Both the position numbers and the translations under genes were made by a program. From positions 73,765 through 137,764 of the forward strand of contig CAMEOO010000001.1 of assembly GCA_945929875.1 (NCBI GenBank): DNA of 64,000 nt, in the 5' to 3' direction. The notes below the pieces were generated by a model. It made no database searches, had not been told where the DNA came from, and saw nothing but the letters and a program-made list of their open reading frames with translations. Shown here piece after piece: positions 1-51,028 of the stretch (the stretch's first letter is position 1; every line of letters begins with the position of its first letter). The DNA comes from an uncultured Bacillales bacterium (lineage in GTDB: Bacteria; Bacillota_I; Bacilli_A; RFN20; CAG-449).

Positions 1-579
1 TATTCCCATCGAAGCATTCGTGGAGGTAGGATGCTTTGGTTTTTCACTAAAGGAAAGAATTTGATTATTATCATTTAATGATAAAATTCCAAATCGACTT
101 GCTTCTTCAATGCTAACATCAATTGAAGATAAACAGACATCTCCTTCTTTTTGTTTTAAAAAATTCAACATTTTGATATAATTCATTTTATATATATGAT
201 CACTTGAAGCAATTAAAACATATTCTGGATTAAATTGTTCAAGAAAATCAAGGTTTTGATATATAGCATCTGCCGTGCCTTTATACCAAGAGGAATCTTC
301 TTCTTTCTGTCGAGGAGAAAGTAAAGTAAAAGATGAATTATTCCCATCAAATCCCCAATGTTTTCCACTTGAAGTATAATGATTTAATTCGACGGTTTCA
401 TATTGAGTAACTAACCCAATCTTATTAATATTGGAGTTAGCTAGGTTAGATAAAACAAAATCAACTATTCGATATTTTCCTCCATAAAATACCGCTGGCT
501 TACAATTTTTCTTTGTGAGCCCTTTTAATCTTGTTCCTTTCCCTCCAGCAAGAACTAAAGCAACAATTTCATTTTTCAT
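1..579 (-). CDS. glgC: Glucose-1-phosphate adenylyltransferase, N-terminal ~190 codons (gene continues past the left edge)
   Basis: Minus-strand translation from ATG 577-579 gives MKNEIVALVLAGGKGTRLKGLTKKNCKPAVFYGGKYRIVDFVLSNLANS... This carries the LAGGxGxRL and KPAVxFGGxYRIIDFxLSN signatures of GlgC. It is missing from the ORF track only because the window edge truncates it. Confidence 0.85.
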   Translation of the reverse strand, partial: MKNEIVALVLAGGKGTRLKGLTKKNCKPAVFYGGKYRIVDFVLSNLANSNINKIGLVTQYETVELNHYTSSGKHWGFDGNNSSFTLLSPRQKEEDSSWYKGTADAIYQNLDFLEQFNPEYVLIASSDHIYKMNYIKMLNFLKQKEGDVCLSSIDVSIEEASRFGILSLNDNNQILSFSEKPKHPTSTNASMGI

Positions 580-1517
580 TAACTTTTTTCTCCTTTAAAA
601 ATAATAATTTCTGATAAACTTTTTAAATAGTTATAAATAGTATCAATGCATTCAACTTTTTTCTCCATTAGATCTTTATCTACCTTTTTAAAGATATTTT
701 CAGAAAGATTAAACTTCCAACCAGGAATGATTAAACAAATTATATCCTCAAAGGATATAATAATAATTTTAGCGTTAATATATCTTTGAAGAGAATCAAA
801 TTCACTGAGAAAAGAATTATCGCATATTTCATTGGTTTTTAATGAATAGGTAGAATACACTTTTATCGAGGAAGAATATTTAGGATTATCGTAATTGAAT
901 TCAAAAATATTTTTATCATTATAAATATGACATAAACAATTACCAAAAGTGTTAATTTCTAAAAAATCATTATTTTTGTAAGATGTTTTCAATAGAATTA
1001 ACCCGGCTTTATTCCCTTTAATCCCTTTTAAAAATAATTGATAAAAGATCATTATATTATCTTTCTTTAAAGATAGTAAACACTCTTTATCAATATTAGA
1101 AAAAGGAAGATATTTATAGATAATTTCAAATTTACGATTAAAATAATAAATGTCATTTTCGTGAGGATAAAATTCATTTAATTTTAGTTCATCCTGAAAA
1201 ATCACTTTAAACATTTTTTGATAATGTTTGTTTAATACAAAAAAAGTTATAAACGAAAATAAAAAGGATAATAAAATTATAATAATTCCAAACATGATGT
1301 TAATTAGATGTTGCGTGTTATTATTAGAATAGATAAATTGTAAATATCTATTGATAAAACTAGAATAAAAAACTTCGTATTTAATTGGCAAAATATAAGC
1401 AATATAAAATAATGACAAAATAACAAGAGGAATACAAAAAGAAAGAAATACCTTAAAAAGATAGTGTTTCTTTAATTCATTTAATCTTAAACTTACTACT
1501 GAATAATTTTCTTTCAT
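579..1517 (-). CDS. Hypothetical membrane protein: two N-terminal TM helices followed by a ~200-aa soluble domain; family not recognised (possibly DUF3137-like)
   Basis: 312-aa ORF with hydrophobic segments FKVFLSFCIPLVILSLFYIAYILPI and MFGIIIILLSFLFSFITFFVL. Its stop TAA shares one nucleotide with the glgC ATG (TAATG, 577-581). An extended -10-like TGATATAAT lies on the minus strand at 1535-1543. Confidence 0.6.
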   Translation of the reverse strand: MKENYSVVSLRLNELKKHYLFKVFLSFCIPLVILSLFYIAYILPIKYEVFYSSFINRYLQFIYSNNNTQHLINIMFGIIIILLSFLFSFITFFVLNKHYQKMFKVIFQDELKLNEFYPHENDIYYFNRKFEIIYKYLPFSNIDKECLLSLKKDNIMIFYQLFLKGIKGNKAGLILLKTSYKNNDFLEINTFGNCLCHIYNDKNIFEFNYDNPKYSSSIKVYSTYSLKTNEICDNSFLSEFDSLQRYINAKIIIISFEDIICLIIPGWKFNLSENIFKKVDKDLMEKKVECIDTIYNYLKSLSEIIIFKGEKS

Positions 1518-1623: not shown

Positions 1624-1644
1624 AAAAAAGCTCTCTTAGAGAGC
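1624..1644 (-). terminator. Rho-independent terminator after the 145-aa membrane protein gene
   Basis: The minus-strand RNA reads GCUCUC-UAA-GAGAGC (stem 1630-1635 / 1639-1644) one nucleotide after the stop codon, followed by six U (1624-1629). Confidence 0.7.
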
Positions 1645-1645
1645 C

Positions 1646-2083
1646 TTAGAAAAGATCTTCTTCCTTTTTCCTTTTTCTTTTTTTACATAATGCAAAGAAA
1701 ACAACAAATAGAATTAAGTATAGTACTAATCCAAACCAAGTAGAATTGAGGATATTTTTTATAAAATCGACATTGATATAACCCGCTAATTTAGAAAAAA
1801 TACCATAATGAACAGAAACGTAAAGGTTATTGCAAGTTTCTACACCTTTTCTAATTCCATCCCCTATTAATCCAATTTTATTAAGTTGATTCATTACTTT
1901 TTGAAAACTAGAAGCAAAATAGATAGCACTTAACGATAAAGGAAGGAAAAATATACTAGCGAAAAAGCCTCTAAAACGAGCAATTAAAAGTAAGATTATA
2001 ATTGGAAAAATTAATACTAACAAGTACCCAAGTAAAGATAATGCAGGCAGTATTTCTACTTCGACTAGATAGATAGCATTCAT
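1646..2083 (-). CDS. Small polytopic membrane protein with a Lys/Arg/Glu-rich C-terminal tail; no recognised family
   Basis: 145-aa ORF with SD AAAGGAG upstream. About 3 hydrophobic helices (LSLLGYLLVLIFPIIILLLIA, FASIFFLPLSLSAIYFA, WFGLVLYLILFVVFFAL) and the tail CKKRKRKKEEDLF. It lies 60 nt downstream of jetC, before the first terminator. Confidence 0.6.
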   Translation of the reverse strand: MNAIYLVEVEILPALSLLGYLLVLIFPIIILLLIARFRGFFASIFFLPLSLSAIYFASSFQKVMNQLNKIGLIGDGIRKGVETCNNLYVSVHYGIFSKLAGYINVDFIKNILNSTWFGLVLYLILFVVFFALCKKRKRKKEEDLF

Positions 2084-2143: not shown

Positions 2144-5100
2144 TTATTTTTTAATTTCAAATGTATCGACAAATGAACGATTGTTTTGTCTTGATACCAA
2201 TAAAGTTTTATCGACGATTTTAGATAAGTCTGATACCTTTTCACTTGGCGCGGATAAAATGACTTGCAAACCAAGAGATCTTAAAATCTTAATTGATTCG
2301 ATAATTCTTACCGAGTCCATCTTTGAGAAAGCTTCATCAAAGATCACTAATCTAATAGAATTGTTCATCGAATTTGATCTAATTCGATAAAGTTGACTAA
2401 ATGACGCTAAAATGGAAACATAGAATGGAGTTTGCGTTTCTCCTCCTGATTGTTTTTTCATATTTTTAGCAAGAGAATAGGTTCGATCATCCCCTTTAGT
2501 GACCATCATATCAAACATTAGATAAGTTCGATAGTCAGTAAACTTTTCAACATTTTGTTCAATTACGCTATCTTTATCTTTGTTTGAACCAGAAACGTCG
2601 CCTATTAGTTTAAATAAATTAGACATGACATCTTGATATTTATCTAGATATAGTTGTTCATCTTCACCGTAAGTTAGTAATAATTCATCGGTGATCATAT
2701 CGTAATATTCTCGATATTCAGGTGAAGGAGAAACAACAAACTGATAGCTGTCTTGACCAAATTTAGCATCTTTTAAAGCTTCATTTAGTTCATCAATTTG
2801 ACTTCTAACTGTTTCAATAGAAGTTTTTAGCTTAAAGATGAAATCATCTTTAAATTCCTTTGTAGCTTTATCGTAGGCATCTTTAATTTGTGCTTGATAC
2901 TCTGGAAGCTTTACATCGCGAATTAACTCTAAATCTCTATCAAAATCTTCATTTGTATCTTTAGAGATGTCATAAGATAATTTATAAGTTAAGACGTATT
3001 CGCGTCGGTATTCTTGAAGTAAATTCATCGAAGAACGGATTTTATTTTGCGTTCTAGTATATAAATCATCATATTCGCTTCTAATAGCAATCAAAGATTT
3101 ACCACTTGAAACTTCTTCTTGGAATTTAACTAAAGCGTAGTCATTGATGAAATCTTTATCAAATGTTTCATTGATCTCTTTTAAGATCTTATTAGAATTT
3201 TCAATTTGATATGGAATCTTCTCTTCTTGAATAATTTTAATAGCTTGAGAGATTGTCCCTTTTTCTAAAATTAAAGATTGTTTATCATCTTGAAGTTTGA
3301 TAATATCTTGTTCGATTCGTTTAATTTTATTATCGATATTGGTTATTTCATAAGATCCAGCATTGTCTAGTTCATTTTGATACTCACTAAGAGTAGACTT
3401 TAATCCGCTTAAATTTGACGCATCTTCAAGGACCACTAATGCAGAATCAACTTCATTAGTGTTTAAAGTCTCAAGCTTAGAAGCAAAACTTAAACAATCG
3501 ATAAAGGTTTTTAGAATAATTATTTCTTTTTCTTCATTTTGGAATTCTCCATTACGAAGCGAAATCATCTCTTGAGAGACTCTTCTTCCTAGTAATGGGT
3601 ATTGATAATTCTTTTCTGGAATGACAAAAGAAGCAAAGTTACGATATCCTTCACAACTTGGAGTAATACCTTGTCCTGATTCTCTAGCCTCTTTAAAAGT
3701 TTCACATTTAATCATTTTTCCAAGCAAGAAATTTGAATAATCTCTAGCGCCTTGATGGTCAGTAATAATTTCTTCAGCAAGAGAATGATCTAAACATTCA
3801 AAATTTCTTTCGTGAAGTTTTCTTGAATCCACTAAACCAGTATTGTAATAATTGTGAGATCTTAAAATATCACTTAATAGTTTATTTGCTGTTTCATAAT
3901 ACTTATCTTCAACAAATAGATTTAATTTTTGACGGTAAATAAATCCTTCAATTGCCTTGATCCAGCGAGGAGTTTTAACATCGACTAAATCTGCGTAGAT
4001 TAAAACTTGAACTTTTTCATTGTAATAATCTGAAAGTTTATGCTCTAATTCACTTCTAATTTGCTTTAAGGAGTAATCATACATTTTACTACCTTGTTGC
4101 ATATCGGAAATTTGTTGCTTTTTCAAAGTATGAGAAGTAGATAATTCTGCATAATAGTTCTTTAATGAGATGTATACTTCATTAACAACTTCTTTAAATA
4201 ATGTAATCGAATCTCTAAATTCGAGTAAGCTATCGCTAGAAATTTGATTTTCTGAATATATTACCGATTTAAATTCGCTTGCTTTTGAAACTATGTCGTT
4301 TGAAACACTATCGAGTTTATCTAATTCATCTTGATATTTGTCTAAGATTTTTAATGAGCGATTAGGGCTTTTAACAAACGCTAAAATTTGATTAGCTACA
4401 TTAGAGAAATTATTTATATAAGAAGAAAAATTATTTCTAATAGTGTTTAAAGAAGAAGATACCCCATCAATCTTCCTTTGTAAATTATCTCTAGCGTTTG
4501 TTAATTCTAAAGTCAAATTATATGAACCAGAAGAAACTTTTTCTCCAATATAAGATTCTTTTTGCTTAGTTAAGGTAGAAATTTCTTTATCGATATCAAC
4601 TAATTGTTGTTCAATTTCCTCTAAACGATTGTTGTTGCTGGAAATATCTTTTTGCAATGTCGAAATTTGATCTAAAAATACTTGATATGTAATTCTTTTA
4701 GAAATGTAACTAGCTAAATTTAAATCTTTTTTCTTTGAATAAAAATCTAAATATTGATTATGAATTTCTTCTAAGCGTTTGATCTTAATTTGCATATTTT
4801 CACTCTCAAGTTCAAGACGTTTATATTGTTGAATATTCGACCTCATCGAATCGATGTTAATTTCACTTGGAACATCGCAAACATACTCAGTTAAGAATTG
4901 TTCAATATTGGTAATTGGAGTAAAGGAAACTGCTTTTTTAAACAATGAGAAATATTTATCTTTTAAATTTCCAAATAATTCTTTAATCTTCTCCTGATAT
5001 TGAGCATTTGAATCAGCAAAGAAGAATTCTTTTTGGGTGTAGTTTTGTTGAAAATACTCTAAAAGAGATTTATAAGACATTGGAACTCCTAATGAAACAA

Positions 5101-5515
5101 AGTCGTTTTCAGGAATCTTATCATTTAAAATAAAGAAGTGATGCTCTTCTGAATTATCTTCATAAACATCAAAAACAATTCCAGTTAAAAAATATTTATC
5201 ATTGAGATCATCGTACCACTCTAAAACAATATAAGAAGAAAATCTTCCACTTCTTAAATATTTAAATGAGCCTAATCCATCGTCACCGATTTCTCCTTTT
5301 AAGTAGCCTTTTAAAGTACGTCCTGACTTTTCATTAGCCGCTTTGTTAAAGGTTCTTCCAGAAGTATCACCAAGTAAAACTATTTGCATCGCATCGATTA
5401 AAGTGGATTTTCCAGCCGCGTTTTGTCCAGTCAAAAAATTAATTTGATCTAAATCAAAAGTCACATTATAAAAATAGTGCCAATTGATTATTCTTACTTT
5501 TTTTAATAATTTCAT
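2144..5515 (-). CDS. jetC: SMC-like ABC ATPase of the JetC / MksB type (Wadjet or Mks condensin large subunit)
   Basis: 1123 aa. Walker A GQNAAGKST at aa 30-38. Very long heptad-rich K/E/L/I/N middle (coiled-coil-like). C-terminal QSGGETQTPFYV signature-like motif and Walker B LVIFDEAFSKMD. SD AGGGGGA lies 5 nt upstream of the ATG. It is the third gene of a kleisin-like / small acidic / ATPase trio. Confidence 0.7.
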   Translation of the reverse strand: MKLLKKVRIINWHYFYNVTFDLDQINFLTGQNAAGKSTLIDAMQIVLLGDTSGRTFNKAANEKSGRTLKGYLKGEIGDDGLGSFKYLRSGRFSSYIVLEWYDDLNDKYFLTGIVFDVYEDNSEEHHFFILNDKIPENDFVSLGVPMSYKSLLEYFQQNYTQKEFFFADSNAQYQEKIKELFGNLKDKYFSLFKKAVSFTPITNIEQFLTEYVCDVPSEINIDSMRSNIQQYKRLELESENMQIKIKRLEEIHNQYLDFYSKKKDLNLASYISKRITYQVFLDQISTLQKDISSNNNRLEEIEQQLVDIDKEISTLTKQKESYIGEKVSSGSYNLTLELTNARDNLQRKIDGVSSSLNTIRNNFSSYINNFSNVANQILAFVKSPNRSLKILDKYQDELDKLDSVSNDIVSKASEFKSVIYSENQISSDSLLEFRDSITLFKEVVNEVYISLKNYYAELSTSHTLKKQQISDMQQGSKMYDYSLKQIRSELEHKLSDYYNEKVQVLIYADLVDVKTPRWIKAIEGFIYRQKLNLFVEDKYYETANKLLSDILRSHNYYNTGLVDSRKLHERNFECLDHSLAEEIITDHQGARDYSNFLLGKMIKCETFKEARESGQGITPSCEGYRNFASFVIPEKNYQYPLLGRRVSQEMISLRNGEFQNEEKEIIILKTFIDCLSFASKLETLNTNEVDSALVVLEDASNLSGLKSTLSEYQNELDNAGSYEITNIDNKIKRIEQDIIKLQDDKQSLILEKGTISQAIKIIQEEKIPYQIENSNKILKEINETFDKDFINDYALVKFQEEVSSGKSLIAIRSEYDDLYTRTQNKIRSSMNLLQEYRREYVLTYKLSYDISKDTNEDFDRDLELIRDVKLPEYQAQIKDAYDKATKEFKDDFIFKLKTSIETVRSQIDELNEALKDAKFGQDSYQFVVSPSPEYREYYDMITDELLLTYGEDEQLYLDKYQDVMSNLFKLIGDVSGSNKDKDSVIEQNVEKFTDYRTYLMFDMMVTKGDDRTYSLAKNMKKQSGGETQTPFYVSILASFSQLYRIRSNSMNNSIRLVIFDEAFSKMDSVRIIESIKILRSLGLQVILSAPSEKVSDLSKIVDKTLLVSRQNNRSFVDTFEIKK

Positions 5516-5527
5516 GTTAATCCCCCT

Positions 5528-6139
5528 TTAATTATCTAGGCCGAATTTACTAACTTCGTCAAATATCGCATTTATTTTTTCCATATCGATTACATAAAGA
5601 ATTGAAGGTAAAATATAGAAAGTGAAGGTACGCTCTTTAAATTCGCCACTGACACGATTAATGATGTTATGATTTTCTAAGAATCGATAACAACTAGCCA
5701 TACTAACAGCGCTTGGTTTTTTGTCTAGTTTAATTAATCCTTTATCAATTAGTACCTTTAAAAGTTCATTCGCGCTGGAAAGAACTTCACTAGTCATTTG
5801 ATTTTCTTCTCTTGCGCATTCATAGATATATCTTAATCCATAAACCATAACTGATGTTAAGAAATCAAGACGAATGTGATTTTCTTGATATTCATTATTA
5901 ATGGAAATTACCCCAAGGCGGCTATCTTTTTCAATGGTCCAACCTGAATACTCTAAATACTCTCTAATTAAATCGATATTTCTTTCACAAAAAGAATAAT
6001 CTCGATTACTTTTCATCATCTTTAAATGGCGATCATAATTTTCTCTTAAAATAAATGATTTAAGCATCAAAGTATTTACTACATGAGCAAATTCTTCTTT
6101 ATCGGCATTTGAAAATTTTTCATATTCTTCAAAAAACAT
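5528..6139 (-). CDS. jetB: Small acidic JetB / MksE-like (DUF4194-like) subunit
   Basis: The ORF track gives 5528-6166. I prefer the ATG at 6137-6139 (MFFEEYEKF...) because it follows GGTGAATAAT, that is an SD plus the jetA stop. The protein is ~203 aa, acidic and helical, with a pattern (...FAHVVNTLMLKSFILREN...IREYLEYSGWTIEKD...LRYIYE...) that resembles DUF4194. Its position between the kleisin-like and ATPase genes also fits. Confidence 0.55.
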   Translation of the reverse strand: MFFEEYEKFSNADKEEFAHVVNTLMLKSFILRENYDRHLKMMKSNRDYSFCERNIDLIREYLEYSGWTIEKDSRLGVISINNEYQENHIRLDFLTSVMVYGLRYIYECAREENQMTSEVLSSANELLKVLIDKGLIKLDKKPSAVSMASCYRFLENHNIINRVSGEFKERTFTFYILPSILYVIDMEKINAIFDEVSKFGLDN

Positions 6140-6140
6140 A

Positions 6141-7577
6141 TTATTCACCTTTCTTGACATAGCCATAATCTGGCATATCGTATTTCTCTTGCTTTATTAC
6201 CCTTGTCATAGGGTCTTTTCTTTTTAAAGTGTAGAAAGAATTATCGTCACTAGCTTTAACGCTACCAAGAATAACCATAATGAAATCTTCTACATCTTTA
6301 ACATTGATATCACTGACATTAATCTCTTTTTGATCTTTGAATGCTTTATCCATAAAATCGAGAATTTTTTCATCGCTATATTGATCCATAATATCTAGTA
6401 AGGACTGCATTAAACCTTCGTTAACCTCATGATCAAAATCGTCGATCATCATTGGTTCTCCATCATTCCTTGGATTTCTCTTATATGGTCTTTGTAAACT
6501 ATATTCATCGAGGTAACCTTGTTGATAAAGATTAATTGAATTGTTGATATCTTTAATTACATCTTTATAGATTGAGCCATTTTCTTCACCATTGATAACC
6601 TTAGCTAGAGCTAAGAAAATCGTTTCTAGTTTTCCTTTGATTGTTTTATCGGAATTATTTAGGTAGATAACTTTTTCCGTCGTTGCTAAAGTATATTCTG
6701 ATTGAGCTTTATCTATTTCTTCCATGTCGCCCGCTAGATGAGAATACGTATCAGAAATATAATTGATTTTTTTTATGATATCATTGATAGCTTCTTCTTT
6801 AGAATGAAGATTCCTATTGTAGATAAGGGCTTGATTAACAAGTTTTTCCCTTACTGCATCAGTATTTAACCATCTCTTTAAAATAAAATTGATAGGTCCA
6901 TTATAAAGAATGATTGAATCGTTAGTTTTAAGTGGGTGATAGATCGGATCAACAACATCTTCTCTTGCGATATCAAAGTGTTGTTCAAGAACTTCATTTG
7001 GCGAGAAGATATTAGATAATTGTTTATGGAAAACTTTGATTGAGTGATTTAGTTTAGAAACTTCTAGTTCTAATTCTTTTGTATTGTTAACCGCGTTAAC
7101 AAGGCTTCGATACATAAATTCGTCTTGAGATTCGTCTTCATATTGCAAATCCGCGAAAGTTGAGTGAACGTAAGAAATGTATTTTGATTCGTTATCAGAA
7201 ACAAATTCATAGATGATTTTAAGCATGGAAATTGAATAACTTGGTAGCAAGATATATTCACAGCCTGTCTTTAAATCAGTGTCAATCATTATCCAACCAG
7301 TATCAACTAAGCGTCTTACAACTAGATTAGCTTTACCAGCAAGAGTAGGTTCAACTAGAAGAGAATTATCTTCAAATTCATCTACTTCAACCTTAAAAAG
7401 ATTAATTTCATTTTCTCCTCGGCTTTTAAGTAAATCTAAATAATCGCTTTTTCTAATCTTATTTCGATATAAAGTTAAGCAATCAAAAAGTGTTACTAAT
7501 GCTATACCATAGACATTTTTATTTTTACTTGATAATATGCTAAAGAAATTATCAGGAATCTTGTTAAAAAAGTTCAA
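6141..7577 (-). CDS. jetA: JetA / MksF-like (DUF3375-like, kleisin-type) subunit
   Basis: 478 aa with a TTG start 6 nt after GGAGG. The N-terminal region contains ...KANLVVRRLVDTGWIMIDTDLKTGCEYILLPSYSISMLKIIYEF..., reminiscent of the winged-helix segment of DUF3375 proteins. Size and first position in the trio match JetA/MksF. Confidence 0.55.
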   Translation of the reverse strand: MNFFNKIPDNFFSILSSKNKNVYGIALVTLFDCLTLYRNKIRKSDYLDLLKSRGENEINLFKVEVDEFEDNSLLVEPTLAGKANLVVRRLVDTGWIMIDTDLKTGCEYILLPSYSISMLKIIYEFVSDNESKYISYVHSTFADLQYEDESQDEFMYRSLVNAVNNTKELELEVSKLNHSIKVFHKQLSNIFSPNEVLEQHFDIAREDVVDPIYHPLKTNDSIILYNGPINFILKRWLNTDAVREKLVNQALIYNRNLHSKEEAINDIIKKINYISDTYSHLAGDMEEIDKAQSEYTLATTEKVIYLNNSDKTIKGKLETIFLALAKVINGEENGSIYKDVIKDINNSINLYQQGYLDEYSLQRPYKRNPRNDGEPMMIDDFDHEVNEGLMQSLLDIMDQYSDEKILDFMDKAFKDQKEINVSDINVKDVEDFIMVILGSVKASDDNSFYTLKRKDPMTRVIKQEKYDMPDYGYVKKGE

Positions 7578-7658
7578 TTTAAACCTCCTAGTTAGTTAAT
7601 TGATATGAGGTTTTATTATAAATAATAAAAAGCATTTTATTAACTACCTCAATATTAT

Positions 7659-7686
7659 AAAAAAAAGTGTGTTGTCAATCAACACA
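7659..7686 (-). terminator. Rho-independent terminator after plsC (separates plsC from the jet operon)
   Basis: Minus-strand stem UGUGUUG / CAACACA (7668-7674 / 7680-7686) with a 5-nt loop, followed by eight U (7659-7666). A TTGACA hexamer sits in the loop and descending arm and could be the jet operon -35, but spacing to the nearest -10-like TAATAT/TATAAT is 13-15 nt. Confidence 0.65.
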
Positions 7687-7714
7687 ACATTTTAAAAAAA
7701 TATATTTTTTTGGG

Positions 7715-19766: not shown

Positions 19767-20558
19767 TTAAATTAAAAATTTTCTTAAAAATGTAAGTGCA
19801 TTTTTTTCAAGTCGACTCACTTGAGCTTGAGAAATATTATAAATTTTAGCAATCTCTATTTGCGATTTACCTTGATAGTAACGTTTTTGAATAATATCTC
19901 TTTCAAGATTATTTAATGAATCAATTCCTTGTTTTAATGATAAATAATTTATCATTTTTTCTTCCGTATAATTGTTATCTGAAACGACATCTTGAAGTAA
20001 TATCGATTGATCAAAATCATTATATAAAGGCTCACTTAAAGAAGAAATAGGTAAAGTGGATTCAATTGCTTCTTGTAGTAAATAAGGGTCGATCTTTAAT
20101 TTCTTAGCCATCTCTTCATTAGAAGGGATTGTTCCAAATTCATTGATATACCTTTCCTTCTCTTTCATAAAATGGTAGGCTGTATCCTTAATCTGACGAG
20201 ATATTCTTAATATCGATGAATCTCTAAGATAACGTCTAATTTCTCCATCGATCATTGGAACCGCGTAAGTTGAAAACTTGACATCTAAAGACAAATCAAA
20301 ATTATTGATCCCCTTTAAGAGACCTAAAGTACCAATTTGAAAAAGATCATTAGCTATTTCATTTTTTTTATTATATTTATTCACTATGGATAAAACTAAT
20401 TTTAGATTTCCTTTAACCAAATCATCTAAATATTCTTTACTTCTTGTTTCACGATATTTTTTTAATAAATCTAACGATTCATCACTAGATAAAACTTTTA
20501 ACCGGTTTGTATCGATTCCGACGATTTCTACTTTGTTTTTCGGCATATTTTCACCCAA
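19767..20558 (-). CDS. sigG: Sporulation sigma factor SigG (SigF/SigG family)
   Basis: 263 aa with VEIVGIDTNRLKVL, NLKLVLSIVNKY, DLFQIGTLGLLKGINNFD, FSTYAVPMIDGEIRRYLRD and the C-terminal HTH SQIEIAKIYNISQAQVSRLEKNAL. It lies downstream of spoIIGA-sigE as in Bacillus. Confidence 0.85.
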   Translation of the reverse strand: MGENMPKNKVEIVGIDTNRLKVLSSDESLDLLKKYRETRSKEYLDDLVKGNLKLVLSIVNKYNKKNEIANDLFQIGTLGLLKGINNFDLSLDVKFSTYAVPMIDGEIRRYLRDSSILRISRQIKDTAYHFMKEKERYINEFGTIPSNEEMAKKLKIDPYLLQEAIESTLPISSLSEPLYNDFDQSILLQDVVSDNNYTEEKMINYLSLKQGIDSLNNLERDIIQKRYYQGKSQIEIAKIYNISQAQVSRLEKNALTFLRKFLI

Positions 20559-20598
20559 AAATTAATATGGGCAAAAATTTCTAATTTATAACAAATAA

Positions 20599-21144
20599 TT
20601 AAATCTTAAAGTTAAATTTTTTGTCTACTTGTGGTTCATTTACTTGAGTTAATTTATCAATCGAAGTAAAAATAGCTTTAATTAAATTATTAAAATCGCT
20701 TGCTTTAGCTTTTTTAAATATTACCTTTGTTGGAAGATTATTAATATTGGTAGGATATTCAATCCAAATAGTTTTTGTCCTTTTTAAAAAGTAAAGTAAA
20801 AAGAATATAAATGATAGTAAAAAAGTTGTTGTTGCGGAAATAATCAAATAAAGAATAATTTTATCTAAAAGCGCTTTATTTTGAAAATATAGAAAAGCGC
20901 TAGCAGCTAAAATGATGAACATCAAAACTAAGAAGATAATCCCAAAAGTTTTGAAAGTTAAATTCTTTTGATTGGAATACCTAATTGCAGTTACTTTATC
21001 AAGTTGAATAACTTTATTAGTTAAAATTGATTTTGATTTTTTCTTCTTTTGAGAGACGATATATATTCTTTTATTAGAAACCGTAATTGGATATAATTCA
21101 CCCATCACTAATTCATCTTCTGAAGCTAAAACTTGTTCTTTCAT
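20599..21144 (-). CDS. Membrane protein: PH-like N-terminal domain, two TM helices, short C-terminal domain; unknown function
   Basis: 181 aa with SD AGGTGA. Helices FGIIFLVLMFIILAASAFLYF and IILYLIISATTTFLLSFIFFLLYFL. It sits between the mini-sepF and sigG. Confidence 0.55.
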   Translation of the reverse strand: MKEQVLASEDELVMGELYPITVSNKRIYIVSQKKKKSKSILTNKVIQLDKVTAIRYSNQKNLTFKTFGIIFLVLMFIILAASAFLYFQNKALLDKIILYLIISATTTFLLSFIFFLLYFLKRTKTIWIEYPTNINNLPTKVIFKKAKASDFNNLIKAIFTSIDKLTQVNEPQVDKKFNFKI

Positions 21145-21213
21145 AATTTTTCACCTAAAACAATCATATGATAAATTAAATCTCTTTTCAATTTTTTTCT
21201 ATCATTATAAAAA

Positions 21214-21447
21214 CTAGAGGGAGAAAATATAAATGTTATCCTCCAGTTTTTCTCTTGAGCCTTTTAGCGCAAAGATGTAACCGCTTAAAAAATCGATCAC
21301 ACGATATTTTTCTTTGACATCTAAAGAAGAAATATTTACGATAATTGCTTTATTTTCTAATAAAGTTTTAATGCAATCATAAATATTTTCAGTGTCTTTT
21401 ACTAAGAAAACTTTAGGTGTCACTTGCTTACTTTTAACTTTATTCAT
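21214..21447 (-). CDS. sepF: Minimal SepF (FtsZ-binding C-terminal domain only)
   Basis: 77 aa. PKVFLVKDTENIYDCIKTLLENKAIIVNISSLDVKEKYRVIDFLSGYIFALKGSREKLEDNIYIFSL aligns along its whole length with the B. subtilis SepF core ([34 protein letters not shown]...[31 protein letters not shown]). The ATG overlaps the sigE stop by 8 nt. Confidence 0.8.
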   Translation of the reverse strand: MNKVKSKQVTPKVFLVKDTENIYDCIKTLLENKAIIVNISSLDVKEKYRVIDFLSGYIFALKGSREKLEDNIYIFSL

Positions 21448-22138
21448 GGTTTTTCATCGTCTGTTTGAGCTTTTTCAAAATTCTTTTTTCAAGTCGAGAA
21501 ATATAAGATTGCGAGATATTTAATTTTTCACTAGTTTCTTTTTGTGTGAGTTCTTCACAACCATCAAGACCAAATCTCATCGATAATATTTCTCTTTCCC
21601 GTGGCTTTAATTTTTCTAAAGCTTTATGTAGTTCATCGATCATTTCTTCTTGCTCTAATGAAGAAAAGACTTTATTATCAGAATCACTTAATATATCTTC
21701 AAGAAGGAGTTCATTACCATCGTAATCAACCTTCAAAGGCTCGTCTAAAGATACTTCTACTTTCGATTTAGATTTTTTTCTAAGATACATTAAAATTTCA
21801 TTTTCAATACATCTAGATGCATAGGTAGCTAGTTTGATGTTTTTATCGATTTTAAAAGTATTGATCGCTTTGATTAAACCAATGGTACCAATAGAAATCA
21901 AATCTTCTAAATTATTGATATTAGTATCGTAACGCTTTGCAACATAGACCACTAAACGAAGATTGTGTTCAATTAAAATATTTCTTGACTCGATACTTCC
22001 TTTTTCATATTGAGCAATATGATAATCCTCTTCTTCTTTTGTTAATGGAGGAAGAAGATTTTCACTCCCATTAATGTAGTGAGTTGAACCATTTAGATGA
22101 AACAATTTTACTAAAAAATAATATATTTTTTTTAACAT
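21440..22138 (-). CDS. sigE: Sporulation sigma factor SigE (pro-sigma-E)
   Basis: 232 aa with an N-terminal pro-sequence followed by YINGSENLLPPLTKEEE, IEHNLRLVVYVAKRY, DLISIGTIGLIKAINTF and KLATYASRCIENEILMYLRK, a near-identical layout to B. subtilis pro-SigE. Confidence 0.92.
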   Translation of the reverse strand: MLKKIYYFLVKLFHLNGSTHYINGSENLLPPLTKEEEDYHIAQYEKGSIESRNILIEHNLRLVVYVAKRYDTNINNLEDLISIGTIGLIKAINTFKIDKNIKLATYASRCIENEILMYLRKKSKSKVEVSLDEPLKVDYDGNELLLEDILSDSDNKVFSSLEQEEMIDELHKALEKLKPREREILSMRFGLDGCEELTQKETSEKLNISQSYISRLEKRILKKLKQTMKNHE

Positions 22139-22140
22139 AA

Positions 22141-22884
22141 TTACCTCAAATAAGCATTAAGTAATATTTCACATCCATGAAATGAATTAATATCATCGAC
22201 TAATACAACGTAAACAAAAAACTCTTCATCTTTATCTTCAACGCTAATTAAAGCGTTATACCCTATATTTATTTCTATTCCATTTACAGTTTCTACTTCG
22301 ATTTCTTGAGGAGATGATAAATCAAACATCCAAATTTTTTTTAAGCAAAATATAACTGGGACATTATTATATTTTAAGGTATTACCATTATCAAAATAAG
22401 CGCTGAAAGAATATTTTTTATCATCTTTTGAAATGAAGCAAGTAGTCTTATAAACATGAAGATGAAATACCGAATCAACAAACTTGGTAGCTAAGAGTAA
22501 ACATAGCCCAAAAAATGGGACAAATAGGCTATATAATACTCCAATAGGTTTATTGATTACTAGATAAATATTTATAAGTTTAATGTTGTCAGTGATTAAT
22601 ATGACAAAAAAATCTATAAGAAAAAATAAAAGATTAAAAATTAAATAAGAATATAGCCATTTTTTATTAAATGCAACAAATATAAATAAATTAACAATAA
22701 TAAAAATTAATAGGCTAAAGATAAAATGAAGATAGATAGTAAAAAACAAACATGTGTTAACAAGAACTAATGTGATTTTCAGCCCCCTCTTATAACGGTA
22801 TACCATCAATAATTCGGATCCATAAATGCATACCATGATTTGAATTAATAGAAACACCATACTTAAATCTAAATAGACGTCCAT
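22141..22884 (-). CDS. spoIIGA: Sigma-E processing aspartic peptidase SpoIIGA
   Basis: 247 aa with five N-terminal TM helices and a C-terminal domain containing YFDNGNTLKYNNVPVIF (compare the catalytic DSGN motif). It lies immediately upstream of sigE. Confidence 0.8.
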   Translation of the reverse strand: MDVYLDLSMVFLLIQIMVCIYGSELLMVYRYKRGLKITLVLVNTCLFFTIYLHFIFSLLIFIIVNLFIFVAFNKKWLYSYLIFNLLFFLIDFFVILITDNIKLINIYLVINKPIGVLYSLFVPFFGLCLLLATKFVDSVFHLHVYKTTCFISKDDKKYSFSAYFDNGNTLKYNNVPVIFCLKKIWMFDLSSPQEIEVETVNGIEINIGYNALISVEDKDEEFFVYVVLVDDINSFHGCEILLNAYLR

Positions 22885-34508: not shown

Positions 34509-36011
34509 TTATTCAGATAAATCAATTTCTTCTTTTTTAATCATCGCTTTATTGTAATAATAATATCCAAGTGAACCACCTACAAAAACTAGACCAATTG
34601 AAAGAGAAATGATAAAAGAATTTCTTTGCTTTTTCATATAATCATTATAGTAAGAAGTTAGAGATTCTTGATTGACATATTCTTTATCTCCTATTTTTAC
34701 ATAGAGAGCTAAAGTAGTAGAATTTGATGAAGTTAAATCAGACTTAATGACGATATTTTGATTAACTTCTTCATTTAGTATTGCTTCATTATCATAATAG
34801 TTAAATAGCGCACTTGGAATTTGAAAGGTGTGTTCTTGATATTTATTTTCTGAATCAGAAATTTTAATATTGATGCTCTTATTATTCCCGCTAATACTAG
34901 TAATTTGACCTTCCACCAAAGAATATGAAGAACTAGATAAATCAATTGGTTTACTAGTAAATAGTAAATATCCGGTGAATATAATATAAATTCCAACAAA
35001 AATTCCAATCATGACCAAAGTTGATTTCATCAATTTATTTTTATTTTGGTGATAACCTTTTACTCGTTTATCTAAATAAGCATATTTTAAGCCTAAATCA
35101 AAGTCATTTTTTCCTTCAAAATGATATTTATTTCTCATTTCTTTAATCTTTGAATAAGCTAAATAAGCATTAACTAATAAGATGATTAATAAGAAGTAAT
35201 TATTGAAATAGAAAGTAAAAAACAGTACAAAACCAATAATTAATATTTGTAATAGACAGTGTTTAACAATATCAATAATTTTATTCTTTTTTTCATTTTC
35301 CCTAAATCTAGCACCAATTTCGGTATATTTTTCTACTTGAGAAGAAGTATATTTATCATTTTCTATTTTCTCGCTTTCACTAGTAGGAGTTTCATTTTCT
35401 AAAGAAACAGTCTCAGTGCTTTGCTCGTTACTTGGTTCTTCCTTCTTTTTAAGTTCGATTTTATAATAATTTAATAAATTTTCATTAAAATCAACGTCTA
35501 AATCATGGTATAGATGAGAAATGATCTTATCGACATTTTGATAGTTGTAAACTAAATAAAATAGAGTAGAATTATTATCATTTCCAAAATAAATCTTATT
35601 TTGATTGATGCTAGATTTTTTAACTTCTGTTTCTTCAACTATTCTTTCATCTTTTAAAAAACTTTTAATATAAAATTTCCCTTCAGATAATTTTACATAA
35701 TCAAAATAGTATTTGATAAAGAAATTTAAACTCATTCCATTTATTAAGAGTAATAGTATTAAATACATAAAAAATGATAATAAATCAATTTTTGAGATAA
35801 TTGAAAAAATTAAAACTAAAATAAACCCGACATTAGAACTAATAAGCATTACTAGGTAAAGAACTTTGCTTGTCCCAGGCGAAGTAACTACAATAGAATT
35901 TTCTTCATCAATTCTTCTGCCATTTACTATTTTTAAATTTAATAAAAAGTAAATCACACTAGCTAAATTTAAGACTAAAAGAATACTACAGACAATAATT
36001 TTAAAAACCAT
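34509..36011 (-). CDS. Large polytopic membrane protein, unknown function
   Basis: 500 aa with about 7 hydrophobic helices in three clusters, separated by two soluble segments. No motif recognised. Confidence 0.55.
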   Translation of the reverse strand: MVFKIIVCSILLVLNLASVIYFLLNLKIVNGRRIDEENSIVVTSPGTSKVLYLVMLISSNVGFILVLIFSIISKIDLLSFFMYLILLLLINGMSLNFFIKYYFDYVKLSEGKFYIKSFLKDERIVEETEVKKSSINQNKIYFGNDNNSTLFYLVYNYQNVDKIISHLYHDLDVDFNENLLNYYKIELKKKEEPSNEQSTETVSLENETPTSESEKIENDKYTSSQVEKYTEIGARFRENEKKNKIIDIVKHCLLQILIIGFVLFFTFYFNNYFLLIILLVNAYLAYSKIKEMRNKYHFEGKNDFDLGLKYAYLDKRVKGYHQNKNKLMKSTLVMIGIFVGIYIIFTGYLLFTSKPIDLSSSSYSLVEGQITSISGNNKSINIKISDSENKYQEHTFQIPSALFNYYDNEAILNEEVNQNIVIKSDLTSSNSTTLALYVKIGDKEYVNQESLTSYYNDYMKKQRNSFIISLSIGLVFVGGSLGYYYYNKAMIKKEEIDLSE

Positions 36012-37606: not shown

Positions 37607-40168
37607 TTAATCATTTATACCAGGAATAATTGATTCTTCTGGTTCAGAACCTACATTTCTATGAGCTTCTTTGATTTTATTTAATCTCTTTTTGCCTTTT
37701 TCTTTTTTCTTAGTTAATACTTTAGTCATTCTCTTAGCGCGATAAGAATAATATTTTTCTTCAAGTTTTAAACAAATTGGAGTAAATAAGAAACAAGTTA
37801 ACAAGGTAGCTAGAACAAGAGAAACAAGCATTCCACCAAATACGCTTACTAGATCTAAAGGAATAAAGAATGCCCCGACAATAATTAGCCCACAAGCTAC
37901 AGAAGAAATCGTAATGACACTACTTAAGCTTTCTTTATTTCCTCTTAGGATAATTTCTTTTCTTTGCTCGAATGTGGCAACTTTTGTTTTTGATTCACGA
38001 GTGAGCTTTTTAAATCTTGCTAGTAGAGGTATTTGAGAAATTGATGCAATTAGTAATCCCGAAGCAATTCCCATAAGTAGTAATGGAGAAGTTGGAATTC
38101 TAGCAATCGAGAATAATGCTACTGCAACTAAACCAGCAGGAATAATTGTGCTTAAAGAAGAAATACCATAACTAAATCTGTATCTAATTGTGAAGTAAAT
38201 TCCAGAAAGAAGACCAAACATAACTAAGGTTATTGCACTATATGTTAGGATGTAAGTTGGCATAGTTGATTTTGTGGTAGCGACAAATAACTCAACATTT
38301 TCTCCTTGTACTTCCTCTAAATTAAAGAATTTTTCTTCTAATGTATCATAGAAAGTATCATAATCAATACCTTGAGAATCAAATTCGATAGAGATGTAAG
38401 CCATAGTAGGTAAATCGTCACGGTTTTGAGGATCAAGGACAACGTTTTCAACTTTGTTGATTGAAATCATTGTTGGAGTTAAATCAAATTCGTTTTGGAA
38501 AAATTCATTAACTTCATCTTTAGTATCAAATACGTGGGTATTTCCACTAACTTCAGCAGTTATTTCCACTCTGGTAGTTGAATCAAATTCTGAAGTGTAG
38601 TTTAATGTGCCTACACCTGGAATTAAAGAAGTAACCAAAATTACAACAACAGAAACTGCGCTAGCAATTAAAGCAATTAATGAAACTTTCTTTCCTTCTC
38701 TATTTGGATTAAATTTGTACATGAAATTAAATTTCTTTTGAGTTTCATCTTTATTCGCGCTGATGAGGTCCTTATCTTTAACCATAAATATCTTTCTATT
38801 CTCAGCGACTTTTGAGGAAGTGAGCCACCACATTGTAAGCATCATCAAGAGTCTAGTTACAACATATGAAGCAATTGCACCGATTGTTAAAGTGATAGGT
38901 AATAATTTAACTTGGTTAATAGAAATTAAAATTGTAATAATGCTACTAATTAATGAACATACTAATACGTCAAGAGACAGAATTCTAGTTGATTTGAATG
39001 CTTCTGAATTTGCTTTAATAGGTGATTTACCTTTATATAATTCATCTTTAAAGTTTTCAAGTAATGGAACAATTAACGCTAGATTTAACGCCATGATAAT
39101 CAAGAATGATACTACGACCATCGTAGTAAGAGGATAACCAAAGAAGTTAAATACAACAATAGATAGCAAGTTACTAACTAAGAATGCGCTTGCTCCACAA
39201 AGTCCCGCTAAGCCATATCTCACAATTAAGAAAATGCAAGCAAGAAGTGTTAATACTGAAACACCGATTAATACGATGTTGAATGAATTGTTACCAAAAG
39301 TTGCATTAACTTTTTGAACGTAAAGGCGTCTTAACGAATAATCTTGTGGCTCATAATTTAATAATCTTTCAATTGTATGAGCGGAATCGCTAACCATTTG
39401 AATTTGATCAAAATCGTATCTATCAATTAATAATGAAGCAGTAGTAACTTTATCATTTAAATCTTTCTCTACCTTAAAATAAGAAGTAGGAACAATTGAT
39501 AAGATTTTTTCTTTGATTTTTTCTTGAATAACTTTATTTTCGTTTTCAAATGCATCAACATAGCTATCTGCTTCTGTTTTATCAAGCCAAATAACGACTA
39601 CACCATCGATTTTACTTGAATCTTCGCTATCTTCTAGATATTTGTTCTTAAATTCTTCGTATGCATTGTTACATGATGTAATAAAGTTATTAAATTTATC
39701 GTAATCTTTTACATCAACTTGAACATATGGAGTGCTTCCGGAATATTCAACTTTCGCACTGCCAATGACAAATGGGTCAGTAATTTCAATGTAGTCCCCT
39801 TCATCCATAACGCCAGATACTGTGATAGTTCCAGTAGCTTCTAATGAACGTAGAACATATTCAAAGTCATCTTCCGTTTGCGCATTTGTTTGAATTCTAA
39901 CTTGATGATTATCACCATTAGTGTCAACATCGCTAACAGATTCAATATTTGCGTTTCTCACGCCTGCATCTTCAATTCGATTAGTCAATATTTCGACAAT
40001 ATCTTCGATTGTCTTTGTACTTTCTTCAAAATCAATTTGATAAACAGCTTCATATCCAGTACCATACTCTAAACCTGACTTTAATGAACTTACTTGTAAT
40101 GGCGTACAAAATAAAACTGTACAAATTAAGGTTATTACTGTTGCAATATATCCGGCAAAACGTCGCAT
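37607..40168 (-). CDS. secDF: Fused protein translocase subunit SecDF
   Basis: 853 aa with two repeats of (large extracytoplasmic domain plus 5-6 TM bundle). The N-terminus reads SLKSGLEYGTGYEAVYQ (compare the SecD GLDLxGG region). It is adjacent to recJ as in Bacillus. Confidence 0.8.
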   Translation of the reverse strand: MRRFAGYIATVITLICTVLFCTPLQVSSLKSGLEYGTGYEAVYQIDFEESTKTIEDIVEILTNRIEDAGVRNANIESVSDVDTNGDNHQVRIQTNAQTEDDFEYVLRSLEATGTITVSGVMDEGDYIEITDPFVIGSAKVEYSGSTPYVQVDVKDYDKFNNFITSCNNAYEEFKNKYLEDSEDSSKIDGVVVIWLDKTEADSYVDAFENENKVIQEKIKEKILSIVPTSYFKVEKDLNDKVTTASLLIDRYDFDQIQMVSDSAHTIERLLNYEPQDYSLRRLYVQKVNATFGNNSFNIVLIGVSVLTLLACIFLIVRYGLAGLCGASAFLVSNLLSIVVFNFFGYPLTTMVVVSFLIIMALNLALIVPLLENFKDELYKGKSPIKANSEAFKSTRILSLDVLVCSLISSIITILISINQVKLLPITLTIGAIASYVVTRLLMMLTMWWLTSSKVAENRKIFMVKDKDLISANKDETQKKFNFMYKFNPNREGKKVSLIALIASAVSVVVILVTSLIPGVGTLNYTSEFDSTTRVEITAEVSGNTHVFDTKDEVNEFFQNEFDLTPTMISINKVENVVLDPQNRDDLPTMAYISIEFDSQGIDYDTFYDTLEEKFFNLEEVQGENVELFVATTKSTMPTYILTYSAITLVMFGLLSGIYFTIRYRFSYGISSLSTIIPAGLVAVALFSIARIPTSPLLLMGIASGLLIASISQIPLLARFKKLTRESKTKVATFEQRKEIILRGNKESLSSVITISSVACGLIIVGAFFIPLDLVSVFGGMLVSLVLATLLTCFLFTPICLKLEEKYYSYRAKRMTKVLTKKKEKGKKRLNKIKEAHRNVGSEPEESIIPGIND

Positions 40169-48218: not shown

Positions 48219-48962
48219 CTAAGTATCTTTTTCTCTTTGATAAATCTTATCGATTATTTCATTTTGGTTGAAAAACTTTGTCTTATCGAAATAATAATTA
48301 TTTCTAAAGCGGAAAATCGTTAATTTTTTATTAATTTTATCTTTATAATTTTCTTTTGAAAATCTTTTTTTTATTAAAAACAATAAATAATCTTTTTTAA
48401 AATTGACAATTTGAGAAATAAAACCAATTAAAATAAATCCAATTATTAAAGCATCACCCAAAGTATTTATTACAAATAATAGCAAAAGTACAAGAATGAA
48501 AGATAAAATGATTCTTATTACTCTACATTGTAATTCATTAAAAAAATGAGCCAAAAGGATATCGATTATCTTTCCTCCATCTAAAGGATAAATAGGTATA
48601 ATGTTAAATAATAGTATCATCATATTATATTCTTGTGCCAAGCGAAGACCATATGATGAAATTAAGTTTACTTCAAATAATAATTTAATCAATAACAGGC
48701 TTATAAAATAACTTGCAGGACCACTGATAAGAATCAATAATTGCTTAATTGGATGTAATAAATATATATCCTCTATTTTTGCATTAAATCCAGTTGGATA
48801 CATTATTATTTCTTTAGTTCTTATTTTAAAGATTTTGGCTACAAATACATGCGATAATTCATGAATTAATCCAAAGATATATAAAAATAAAATACCATTA
48901 AATCTATTAAATATCAGGGCTAAAAGAATATAAATAATGGTTAAAGGATGGATAATTAACAT
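48219..48962 (-). CDS. spoIVFB: Site-2 (M50) intramembrane metalloprotease SpoIVFB
   Basis: 247 aa with HELSHVFVA (HExxH) in a TM helix and YPLDGGKI (the LDG motif). It follows spoIVFA with a 1-nt TAATG overlap. Confidence 0.8.
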   Translation of the reverse strand: MLIIHPLTIIYILLALIFNRFNGILFLYIFGLIHELSHVFVAKIFKIRTKEIIMYPTGFNAKIEDIYLLHPIKQLLILISGPASYFISLLLIKLLFEVNLISSYGLRLAQEYNMMILLFNIIPIYPLDGGKIIDILLAHFFNELQCRVIRIILSFILVLLLLFVINTLGDALIIGFILIGFISQIVNFKKDYLLFLIKKRFSKENYKDKINKKLTIFRFRNNYYFDKTKFFNQNEIIDKIYQREKDT

Positions 48963-49519
48963 TACTTAATTTCTGAATAGTCGATCATTTTTCCATCTTG
49001 CTTAAATAAGGCTTTAAAAGTTTGATTGTATGAGCAAAGATAATCCCCCTTTTTTACTTGATCGTAAGTTTTGACAAGGGGATCAAATACGTTATAATAA
49101 GCAACAAGAAGCGAGTTTTGATACTCTACAAGTAGAGAATATGAATCATCTAACTCTTTTTTTACTAAATAAACCACTCCATAATCTAAGGAAGGAATTT
49201 GACTTCCTTCACAATAAAAATAATCATCTTCATCACTTTTTAAATAAATGACATTAGAATTTACACTTTTAACGCCACTACTATTTGTTCTAAAGGTAAA
49301 TAATGAATCTAGTACATTATCAACATTTTCATTCACTTTTGTAAAATTTGCATTTATCCCAAAATTATTTTTCAAAAAAGAGGCATTTTGATCTTTCTTC
49401 ATATAAATGAGAACTCCAAGAAGAATAGATAATAATCCACATACTACACTTAATATTTTAAAAACTTTGTTCTTTTTATCTTTTTTAATGCGATTTCTAA
49501 TGTCTTCAACCTTGTCCAT
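48962..49519 (-). CDS. spoIVFA: SpoIVFA-like regulator (single TM plus degenerate LytM/M23 domain)
   Basis: 185 aa with a basic N-terminus and TM ILSVVCGLLSILLGVLIY. The C-terminus GVVYLVKKE...LLVEYQNSLLVAYYNVFDPLVKTYDQVKKGDYLC...FKQDGKMIDYSEI parallels the B. subtilis SpoIVFA C-terminus. It has the minD-spoIVFA-spoIVFB synteny. Confidence 0.6.
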   Translation of the reverse strand: MDKVEDIRNRIKKDKKNKVFKILSVVCGLLSILLGVLIYMKKDQNASFLKNNFGINANFTKVNENVDNVLDSLFTFRTNSSGVKSVNSNVIYLKSDEDDYFYCEGSQIPSLDYGVVYLVKKELDDSYSLLVEYQNSLLVAYYNVFDPLVKTYDQVKKGDYLCSYNQTFKALFKQDGKMIDYSEIK

Positions 49520-49560
49520 TGTTCTTCCTCCTAAAAAAATATATGAACAATCATTAATAT

Positions 49561-50735: not shown

Positions 50736-50851
50736 ATTCTCACCGTTATAATTATCCTACAATCACCATGTCGAAATTTTGCACTTTTATAATTTTTTTT
50801 TAGATTTTTTTATTTTTCTTACTAAGTATCTATATGAAGGAGGAAAAATCT

Positions 50852-51028
50852 ATGCGCATGTTAAGTGATGTTGAAATGATGACACTAACAGGTGGAGAAG
50901 TATTTACTATCGCTGCAGTTATGGCTTGTTTAGCCGCTGCCATCGTCGCAGTTATCTGCTATCGCCTATTTATGTCAAAAAGTGGAAGTACAACTTTGCC
51001 TGGTGGATTTAAATTTACCTGGGCATAA
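50852..51028 (+). CDS. 58-aa peptide with a double-glycine (class II bacteriocin / pheromone type) leader and a hydrophobic 43-aa core
   Basis: MRMLSDVEMMTLTGG / EVFTIAAVMACLAAAIVAVICYRLFMSKSGSTTLPGGFKFTWA. The leader matches LSxxELxxIxGG at positions -12, -11, -8, -7, -4, -2 and -1. GGAGG lies 8 nt upstream of this ATG (the ORF-track start at 50834 contains the SD). The TAA stop shares a nucleotide with the radC ATG. Confidence 0.6.
   Translation: MRMLSDVEMMTLTGGEVFTIAAVMACLAAAIVAVICYRLFMSKSGSTTLPGGFKFTWA

Follow-up and report, generated by a model that had tools for sequence, protein, structure and literature searches.

The 64-kb window analyzed here is the whole stretch of 64,000 nucleotides between positions 73,765 and 137,764 of contig CAMEOO010000001.1 (assembly GCA_945929875.1), from an uncultured Bacillales bacterium of the GTDB lineage CAG-449. 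Five co-directional genes, jetA, jetB, jetC, tm145 and p312, occupy the minus strand within its first 7.6 kb, and the first three of them, which encode a complex of the structural maintenance of chromosomes (SMC) type related to the Wadjet anti-plasmid systems, are the subject of this report. The kleisin subunit JetA (478 aa) is encoded at 6141-7577 (-), with a TTG start codon at 7577-7575 and a stop codon at 6143-6141; a Shine-Dalgarno sequence GGAGG, read directly at 7584-7588 (-), stands 6 nt upstream of the TTG. The gene for the KITE subunit JetB (203 aa; 5528-6139 (-)) opens with an ATG at 6139, 1 nt past the jetA stop, and that for the SMC-type ATPase JetC (1123 aa; 2144-5515 (-)) with an ATG at 5515, 12 nt past the jetB stop. 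The 203-aa start of jetB is correct, to judge by the N-terminus MFFEEYEKF that it yields, because the pattern MF.EE[YF].K is kept in approximately 75 homologues. Two membrane protein genes come next, tm145 (145 aa; 1646-2083 (-)), which begins 60 nt past jetC, and p312 (312 aa; 579-1517 (-)), a downstream neighbour outside the jet unit. The original prediction for this locus was a JetA-JetB-JetC operon with no gene for the JetD nuclease, and the gene sizes, the TTG/GGAGG start and the 1-nt and 12-nt spacings are all as it described them.

Profile searches place all three proteins, at full length, in the type I Wadjet families JetA1, JetB1 and JetC1. JetA matches Pfam PF18982 (JetA) at 1.3e-81 over residues 40-475 and the PADLOC model JetA1 at 4.9e-108 over residues 1-477. 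JetB matches Pfam DUF4194 (4e-14) and, along its full length, PADLOC JetB1 (1.1e-65). For JetC, residues 1-1121 align with positions 1-1087 of the 1097 positions in the PADLOC model JetC1 (PDLC00519; E = 0, 1065 bits), and the Pfam families AAA_29 and SbcC_Walker_B (3.5e-22) are matched as well. Matches of this strength lie far outside what chance would give. The JetA-JetB-JetC call is thereby upheld by Pfam and PADLOC profiles as well as by the fold matches of JetC and JetA described below, and the likeness of the small acidic protein to DUF4194 is confirmed. The assignment of the kleisin to DUF3375 was wrong, as JetA belongs to PF18982 (the type I family 'DUF5716' in PADLOC).

JetC has the motifs and the architecture of an SMC-like ATPase head split by a long coiled coil, as had been proposed. 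The Walker A motif GQNAAGKST (residues 30-38; 5402-5428 (-)) lies near the N-terminus, and the ABC signature SGGETQ (residues 1023-1028; 2432-2449 (-)) and the Walker B motif LVIFDEAF (residues 1056-1063; 2327-2350 (-)) lie near the C-terminus. Residues G30, G35, K36, S37 and T38 of the first motif, S1023, G1024, G1025, E1026 and Q1028 of the second, and F1059, D1060, E1061, A1062 and F1063 of the third are invariant in 63 homologues. We built AlphaFold (AF2) models of JetC and JetA on 63 and 61 homologues, respectively. The JetC model has a mean predicted local distance difference test score (pLDDT) of 78 and runs from head through arm, hinge and return arm back to head, with predicted helices at residues 221-498 and 648-914 and a globular segment at 499-647. 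The latter is the predicted hinge domain (residues ~499-647; 3575-4021 (-)), delimited by the secondary structure of the model with block pLDDT values mostly between 84 and 92; it is conserved in relatives with and without JetD, and many of its residues are invariant in the 63 homologues. The JetA model (mean pLDDT 72) consists of N- and C-terminal winged-helix-like modules flanking a helical bundle. Foldseek returned Wadjet-II JetC, MukB, E. coli JetC and PA14 JetC as top matches of JetC, and Wadjet-II JetA (9qe0_E), MukF (9gm7_C) and E. coli JetA (8q72_E) as top matches of JetA in the PDB. In sequence, the window proteins have moved far from the E. coli Jet proteins with solved structures: single-sequence searches of the PDB returned no match for either JetA or JetB and no more than a MukB head fragment for JetC, whose profile matched E. 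coli JetC in the PDB (3e-13) along the N-terminal head only.

Among the components of a type I Wadjet, JetA, JetB and JetC are thus present at this locus, and the adjacent JetD Toprim nuclease (JetD_C, PF09983) is missing. For a JetD hidden Markov model (HMM), we took eleven proteins encoded immediately after jetC in Clostridia-type relatives; two of the eleven were confirmed as Pfam JetD_C. This model matched no window open reading frame (ORF) of at least 80 aa, and tblastn with the same eleven proteins detected no jetD remnant in the window at E<=1. Beyond jetABC and tm145, only a 312-aa and a 242-aa gene reach at least 100 aa on either strand between positions 579 and 8800. The ORF list, the HMM and tblastn therefore agree with the original prediction that no Toprim-sized ORF or jetD gene lies beside jetABC. 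The exact JetC of the window is also encoded on NCBI contig JAXEAR010000008.1 (GCA_034086365.1), where the 10 kb beyond the window start contain glgC, glgD, glgA, leuS and tex, and no jetD. When mapped onto this contig, the window extends ~15.6 kb beyond the contig start (window ~48400-64000), and it therefore belongs to a different, longer assembly of the same or a near-identical strain.

The same nuclease-less layout recurs widely among the relatives of the operon. We collected 80 loci, one genome per species, each with up to 10 kb of flank. The jetD gene is present in 14 of them (three cut by a contig end), all Clostridia-type loci with 34-40% JetC identity to the window protein, including those of Caldicoprobacter, Thermoclostridium, Fervidicola and Peptococcaceae. 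In the other 66, neither the JetD HMM nor tblastn detected jetD or a remnant of it within 10 kb. Of these JetD-less loci, 53 keep the flanks seen in the window, with ftsK-pulA-plsC upstream and glgC-glgD-glgA-leuS downstream, and the remaining 13 are mostly on short contigs. The shared flanks reach down to 36% JetC identity, where the leucyl-tRNA synthetase (LeuRS) proteins are only 61-65% identical. This layout was seen again when relatives with 80% and 45% JetC identity, located on contigs of 354-536 kb, were examined through independent gene calls with Pfam labels. None of the 80 loci combines jetD with the housekeeping synteny. The organism labels of the relatives include Erysipelotrichaceae, Bacilli, 'Mollicutes' metagenome-assembled genomes (MAGs), Ca. 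Onthovivens, Ca. Enterosoma, CAG:449 and CAG:568; NCBI taxonomy lists Ca. Onthovivens and Ca. Enterosoma as Bacilli incertae sedis. Several of the labelled relatives belong to the GTDB order RF39.

A neighbour-joining tree unites the JetD-less syntenic loci in one group, separate from the JetD-bearing clade. JetC identity co-varies with that of the flank proteins (Pearson 0.94 for LeuRS and 0.95 for PulA). The closest plasmid-borne relative is only 29% identical, and for this reason we regard the operon as not mobile; the shared flanks, the tree and the co-variation mark it as a stable, vertically inherited chromosomal locus. Two Bacilli MAGs contain JetD-less jetABC loci, L082 and L083, that group with the JetD-bearing clade. 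Approximately 160 nt downstream of jetABC, these loci encode a 693-aa UvrD-like superfamily 1 (SF1) helicase (Pfam UvrD-helicase and UvrD_C; 13525-15606 in L082), which may be a HelD-like neighbour or an alternative partner.

The three jet genes are under strong purifying selection, with ratios of nonsynonymous to synonymous substitution (dN/dS) of about 0.1. The ratios were calculated by the Nei-Gojobori method against the 82%-identical orthologue L006, at which distance synonymous sites are near saturation, and amount to 0.08 for jetA, 0.07 for jetB and 0.11 for jetC. The comparison with L003 was left out, as synonymous saturation gave it a pS value above 1. For tm145 and p312, the corresponding ratio of ~0.4 indicates weak constraint.

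The jet transcription unit probably ends with the tm145 gene, because this gene starts 60 nt after jetC and a terminator-like structure is met only past its end. This structure, an intrinsic terminator-like hairpin at 1627-1647 (-) with a 9-bp stem containing four GC pairs and followed by TTTTCTTTT, is likely the 3' end of the jetABC-tm145 unit. The ORF, hydrophobicity and hairpin data match the earlier description of a 145-aa membrane protein gene 60 nt past jetC followed by a terminator. At the other end of the unit, a consensus scan together with inspection of the sequence delimits a putative 5' control region at 7615-7690 (-), made up of pattern matches only. It holds a terminator-like hairpin with a T-run (7686-7668 (-)), which would close the upstream plsC-like acyltransferase gene, and two predicted sigma-70-like hexamer pairs at 7682-7654 and 7643-7615 (-), the latter again pattern matches from the scan.

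The tm145 product is a basic protein (pI 9.6) with three hydrophobic stretches, predicted to be three membrane spans, and a polybasic C-terminal tail, KKRKRKKEEDLF. Across its family, the polybasic tail is conserved together with an IARFRG-like motif between hydrophobic stretches one and two. No significant Pfam or PADLOC match was obtained for tm145, and no domain or enzymatic features are recognisable in it; among 1.84 billion proteins, the family amounts to only 12 representative clusters. Its homologues (in loci L003-L011, L016, L049, L051 and L057) always stand directly 3' of jetC, at distances from a 34-nt overlap to an 87-nt gap, and tm145 keeps to jetC where another gene inserts downstream. 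The family is limited to the subclade of the window, with JetC identity of at least 53%, and most of the JetD-less clade is without it. A membrane tether or a regulator would be our guess for its role.

The p312 gene, by its arrangement, appears to be the uncharacterised first gene of the glgCDA glycogen-synthesis operon. We assign it there because its stop codon overlaps the glgC ATG (TAATG at 581-577), because it has its own predicted extended -10 element (TGTGATATAAT) past the terminator, and because it tracks glgC: where genes have been inserted between jetC and glgC (L010, L016, L039 and L068), p312 stays beside glgC and not beside jetC. The C-terminus of the membrane protein that it encodes bears a weak likeness to DUF3137; a homologue search with this protein returned two proteins only, and the JetD HMM, Pfam and PADLOC gave no nuclease match for it. 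We also considered p312 as a substitute for JetD and ruled it out on account of its translational coupling to glgC, its tracking of glgC, its fast evolution and its lack of a nuclease signature. A Wadjet variant with a different effector, one of three options in the original prediction, finds no support in either neighbour, given that p312 follows glgC and tm145 belongs to a narrow orphan family without enzymatic features. In the two rabbit-gut MAGs with loci L010 and L016, a choloylglycine (bile-salt) hydrolase gene (L010: 11216-12475) stands between tm145 and p312, a small example of the entry of a niche gene into an otherwise fixed locus.

We also compared the protein elements that are known or suspected to contact the nuclease. 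In E. coli, JetD docks via F919 of JetC and possibly also via the JetB N-terminal helix (10.1101/2023.11.03.565488). In a weak, low-confidence alignment (E ~4e-4), E. coli F919 falls on an invariant Phe of the JetD-bearing clade and on a position that is Phe or Tyr in the JetD-less clade (Y956 in the window protein). The JetC loop before this aromatic residue (residues ~948-956) differs systematically between the groups, with EGYNI-S in JetD-bearing and GEDE in JetD-less loci. The JetB N-terminal helix is retained in both groups; residue 2 of JetB (window ~6134-6136) is Trp in every locus that has jetD and Phe in every JetD-less locus with the housekeeping synteny.

Starting from three identified and complete proteins with no adjacent jetD, we consider it reasonably probable that the operon encodes a JetABC complex that works without a nuclease, extrudes loops and has been domesticated for a chromosomal role like that of MksBEF or MukBEF. 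This corresponds to the condensin-type option of the original prediction, and it is favoured because the synteny is deeply conserved, the JetD-less syntenic loci form one clade and purifying selection on the genes is strong. Isolated JetABC is known to hydrolyse ATP and extrude DNA loops without JetD, which is required for cleavage (PMC10889018). A type I Wadjet ancestor would have lost the JetD Toprim nuclease long ago, after which the jetABC operon, fixed in the chromosome, would have been passed on by vertical descent within a deep clade of uncultured low-GC gut Bacilli. In the proposed complex, JetC would dimerise via its hinge, JetA would bridge the heads and, by means of the winged-helix domain at its N-terminus, pair two motor units, and JetB dimers would clamp DNA, while ATP hydrolysis would power the extrusion of DNA loops. 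A stalled motor would have no nuclease to trigger, and the complex may thus bring about DNA folding or segregation and not plasmid cleavage. Chromosome folding seems likelier than plasmid cutting because JetD is absent and the operon keeps the same housekeeping position across a deep clade. We infer loop extrusion by the window complex from JetABC of other species, and its chromosomal housekeeping role by analogy with P. aeruginosa MksBEF and with MukBEF.

Several points count against this interpretation. The known JetD-contact elements show no visible decay, as far as the low-confidence alignment (E ~4e-4) indicates. The absence of JetD applies to the 64-kb window and flanks of up to 10 kb. 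Conserved synteny speaks for vertical inheritance and not for what the complex does, and the functional role proposed for this uncultured clade draws on analogy.

Two of these points bear directly on the possibility that JetD, or another Toprim or other nuclease, is encoded elsewhere in the genome and joins JetABC, so that plasmids are still cleaved. Such a split Wadjet would agree with a jetD search that reached the window and 10-kb flanks and with the retention of the JetB N-terminal segment and, on the same low-confidence alignment, of the F919-equivalent aromatic residue. Yet none of the 66 JetD-less loci has jetD or its remnants within 10 kb, 775 of 869 catalogued operons have the nuclease gene directly adjacent (as FEBG, GFEB or BEFG), and a single ancient loss explains the grouping of the JetD-less syntenic loci in one clade better than repeated relocation would, all of which makes a separately encoded nuclease quite improbable. 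We also regard as unlikely, though deserving of mention, a defence function that needs no nuclease, in which JetABC would sense small circular DNA by total extrusion and neutralise it without cutting (by compaction or silencing, a block to segregation, or membrane tethering), possibly with help from tm145 in the subclade of the window. The proteins still score as type I Wadjet and not with the MksBEF or MukBEF models, tm145 with its conserved polybasic tail always follows jetC in its subclade, and reviews cite the silencing of extrachromosomal DNA by eukaryotic Smc5/6 without cleavage. However, defence systems are normally patchy and located in islands, and this operon is fixed at a housekeeping locus over deep divergence; tm145, moreover, is missing from most of the JetD-less clade, is weakly constrained (dN/dS ~0.4) and has no recognisable domain, and no non-nucleolytic Wadjet is described in the literature that we searched.

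A decaying, non-functional Wadjet remnant, another option of the original prediction, would account for the missing effector gene. It is rejected as highly improbable: the three ORFs are intact in dozens of species with their coupled spacing preserved, the ATPase motifs are invariant in the 63 homologues, and dN/dS is only 0.07-0.11. Still less credence, next to none, can be given to an unrelated repair ATPase of the SbcC, RecN or Rad50 type with unrelated partners. The JetC head does give generic partial matches to SbcC_Walker_B, AAA_23 and Rad50-like models, but the JetC1 model matches from end to end, the hinge is of the SMC type, the top folds are JetC and MukB, and the partner genes encode the JetA kleisin and a DUF4194 KITE protein, with no SbcD/Mre11 gene nearby. 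Profiles lead to the Jet families and folds to the Jet and Muk families, and not to the unrelated family that had been kept in view as the opposing outcome.

Among known systems, the operon shares with the type I Wadjet JetABCD of E. coli GF4-3 (JET) and P. aeruginosa PA14 (PDB 8as8, 8q72 and 8dk2) the JetA1/PF18982, JetB1/DUF4194 and JetC1 families, the A-B-C order with coupled starts and the SMC architecture with a hinge and broken coiled coils. It differs in having no jetD after jetC or within reach and in its fixed housekeeping locus, as opposed to the variable defence context of Wadjet. The P. aeruginosa MksBEF likewise belongs to the Wadjet/Mks group, and its kleisin-KITE-SMC operon has no MksG gene; the complex works on the chromosome as a backup to Smc-ScpAB, which this species has besides MksBEF. 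It represents another phylum and subfamily, however, and the window proteins fit the type I Jet models rather than a distinct Mks lineage. MukBEF of E. coli and related gamma-proteobacteria is a nuclease-less member of the superfamily turned housekeeping condensin, and the folds of JetC and JetA resemble those of MukB and MukF. In contrast to the window complex, MukB has ~1480 aa (1123 aa in JetC), and MukBEF replaced Smc-ScpAB. The Pfam MukF and MukE models gave no match to JetA or JetB at E<=0.01, and the MukB N-terminal model matched JetC weakly (1.6e-7, residues 6-61). The operon is also distinct from Smc-ScpAB, as the SMC_N match of JetC (25.4 bits) is below the cut-off of 40 and its partners are JetA and a DUF4194 protein, not ScpA and ScpB, and from SbcCD/Rad50-Mre11, as jetC adjoins kleisin and KITE genes and not an SbcD/Mre11 nuclease gene.

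The co-directional kleisin-KITE-SMC order without flanking MksG or JetD that marks the nuclease-less 'FEB' or MksBEF-like group is the order found in the window, and this layout is already catalogued. In the survey of Buermann et al. 2025 (Cell; PMC7617805, Fig. S1A and Data S1), 94 of 869 clustered operons have no nuclease. Its Data S1 lists the 82%-identical orthologue of the window operon, from Erysipelotrichaceae bacterium SIG219 (SVBD01000001.1; our L006), as 'FEB' without MksG, and other nuclease-less entries are an Erysipelotrichales MAG, Anaeroplasma bactoclasticum and Tenericutes MAGs. These data record only the missing flanking nuclease; the ftsK-pulA-plsC/jetABC/glgCDA-leuS synteny, the single clade and the selection estimates come from the present analysis, and the literature searched yielded no account of this synteny or of the JetD-less loci as a single clade. 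A paper on Wadjet in Erysipelotrichales (Bulleidia) describes a complete jetABCD and is therefore irrelevant to the JetD-less clade.

The remainder of the window is made up of housekeeping genes, among them the dcw cluster, pheST, ftsK, ruvAB, obg, minD, valS, lon and tig. Ten unannotated window ORFs had no meaningful PADLOC match, so that, for what was scanned, jetABC remains the sole defence-like module of the window, as had been stated. After ftsA-ftsZ in the dcw cluster (window ~19767-22884 (-)), there are a spoIIGA-like gene, sigE and a gene for a sigG-like sigma factor, and because of these genes we think that this MAG lineage, labelled Bacilli/Erysipelotrichaceae and with 29% GC, probably forms endospores. 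Near recJ and the dcw cluster, two ORFs of 853 aa (37607-40168 (-)) and 500 aa (34509-36011 (-)) each begin with an N-terminal hydrophobic segment; neither has a Pfam or PADLOC match.

It has been proposed that a Wadjet that loses its nuclease may thereby become locked into a role on the chromosome (10.1101/2025.03.10.642339), and SMC researchers have proposed MukBEF and MksBEF as nuclease-losing Wadjet complexes that became fixed in chromosome maintenance. A more far-reaching version of the domestication scenario, which we put forward as a speculation with a low chance of being right, is that the nuclease was lost once and JetABC became a core chromosome folder, perhaps displacing Smc-ScpAB as the main condensin, with tm145 as a newly evolved, polybasic protein with three transmembrane segments acting as a membrane tether or regulator in the subclade of the window. 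If true, this course of events would parallel, independently and in a Firmicute lineage, the origin that has been proposed for MukBEF. Within the collected loci, nothing useful came of searching for motifs of RNase III and FtsY, as markers of the rnc-smc-ftsY locus.

The value of the locus is limited by the fact that nuclease-less operons of the Wadjet group had already been catalogued and that its role is argued indirectly. At the same time, it is a clean natural example of nuclease loss, with three intact core proteins still recognisable as type I Wadjet. In practice, annotators of defence systems should not score loci with JetABC only as anti-plasmid systems. The JetD-bearing Clostridia and the JetD-less clade of Bacilli together form a tractable comparison set for the change of an SMC complex from an immune to a housekeeping function.

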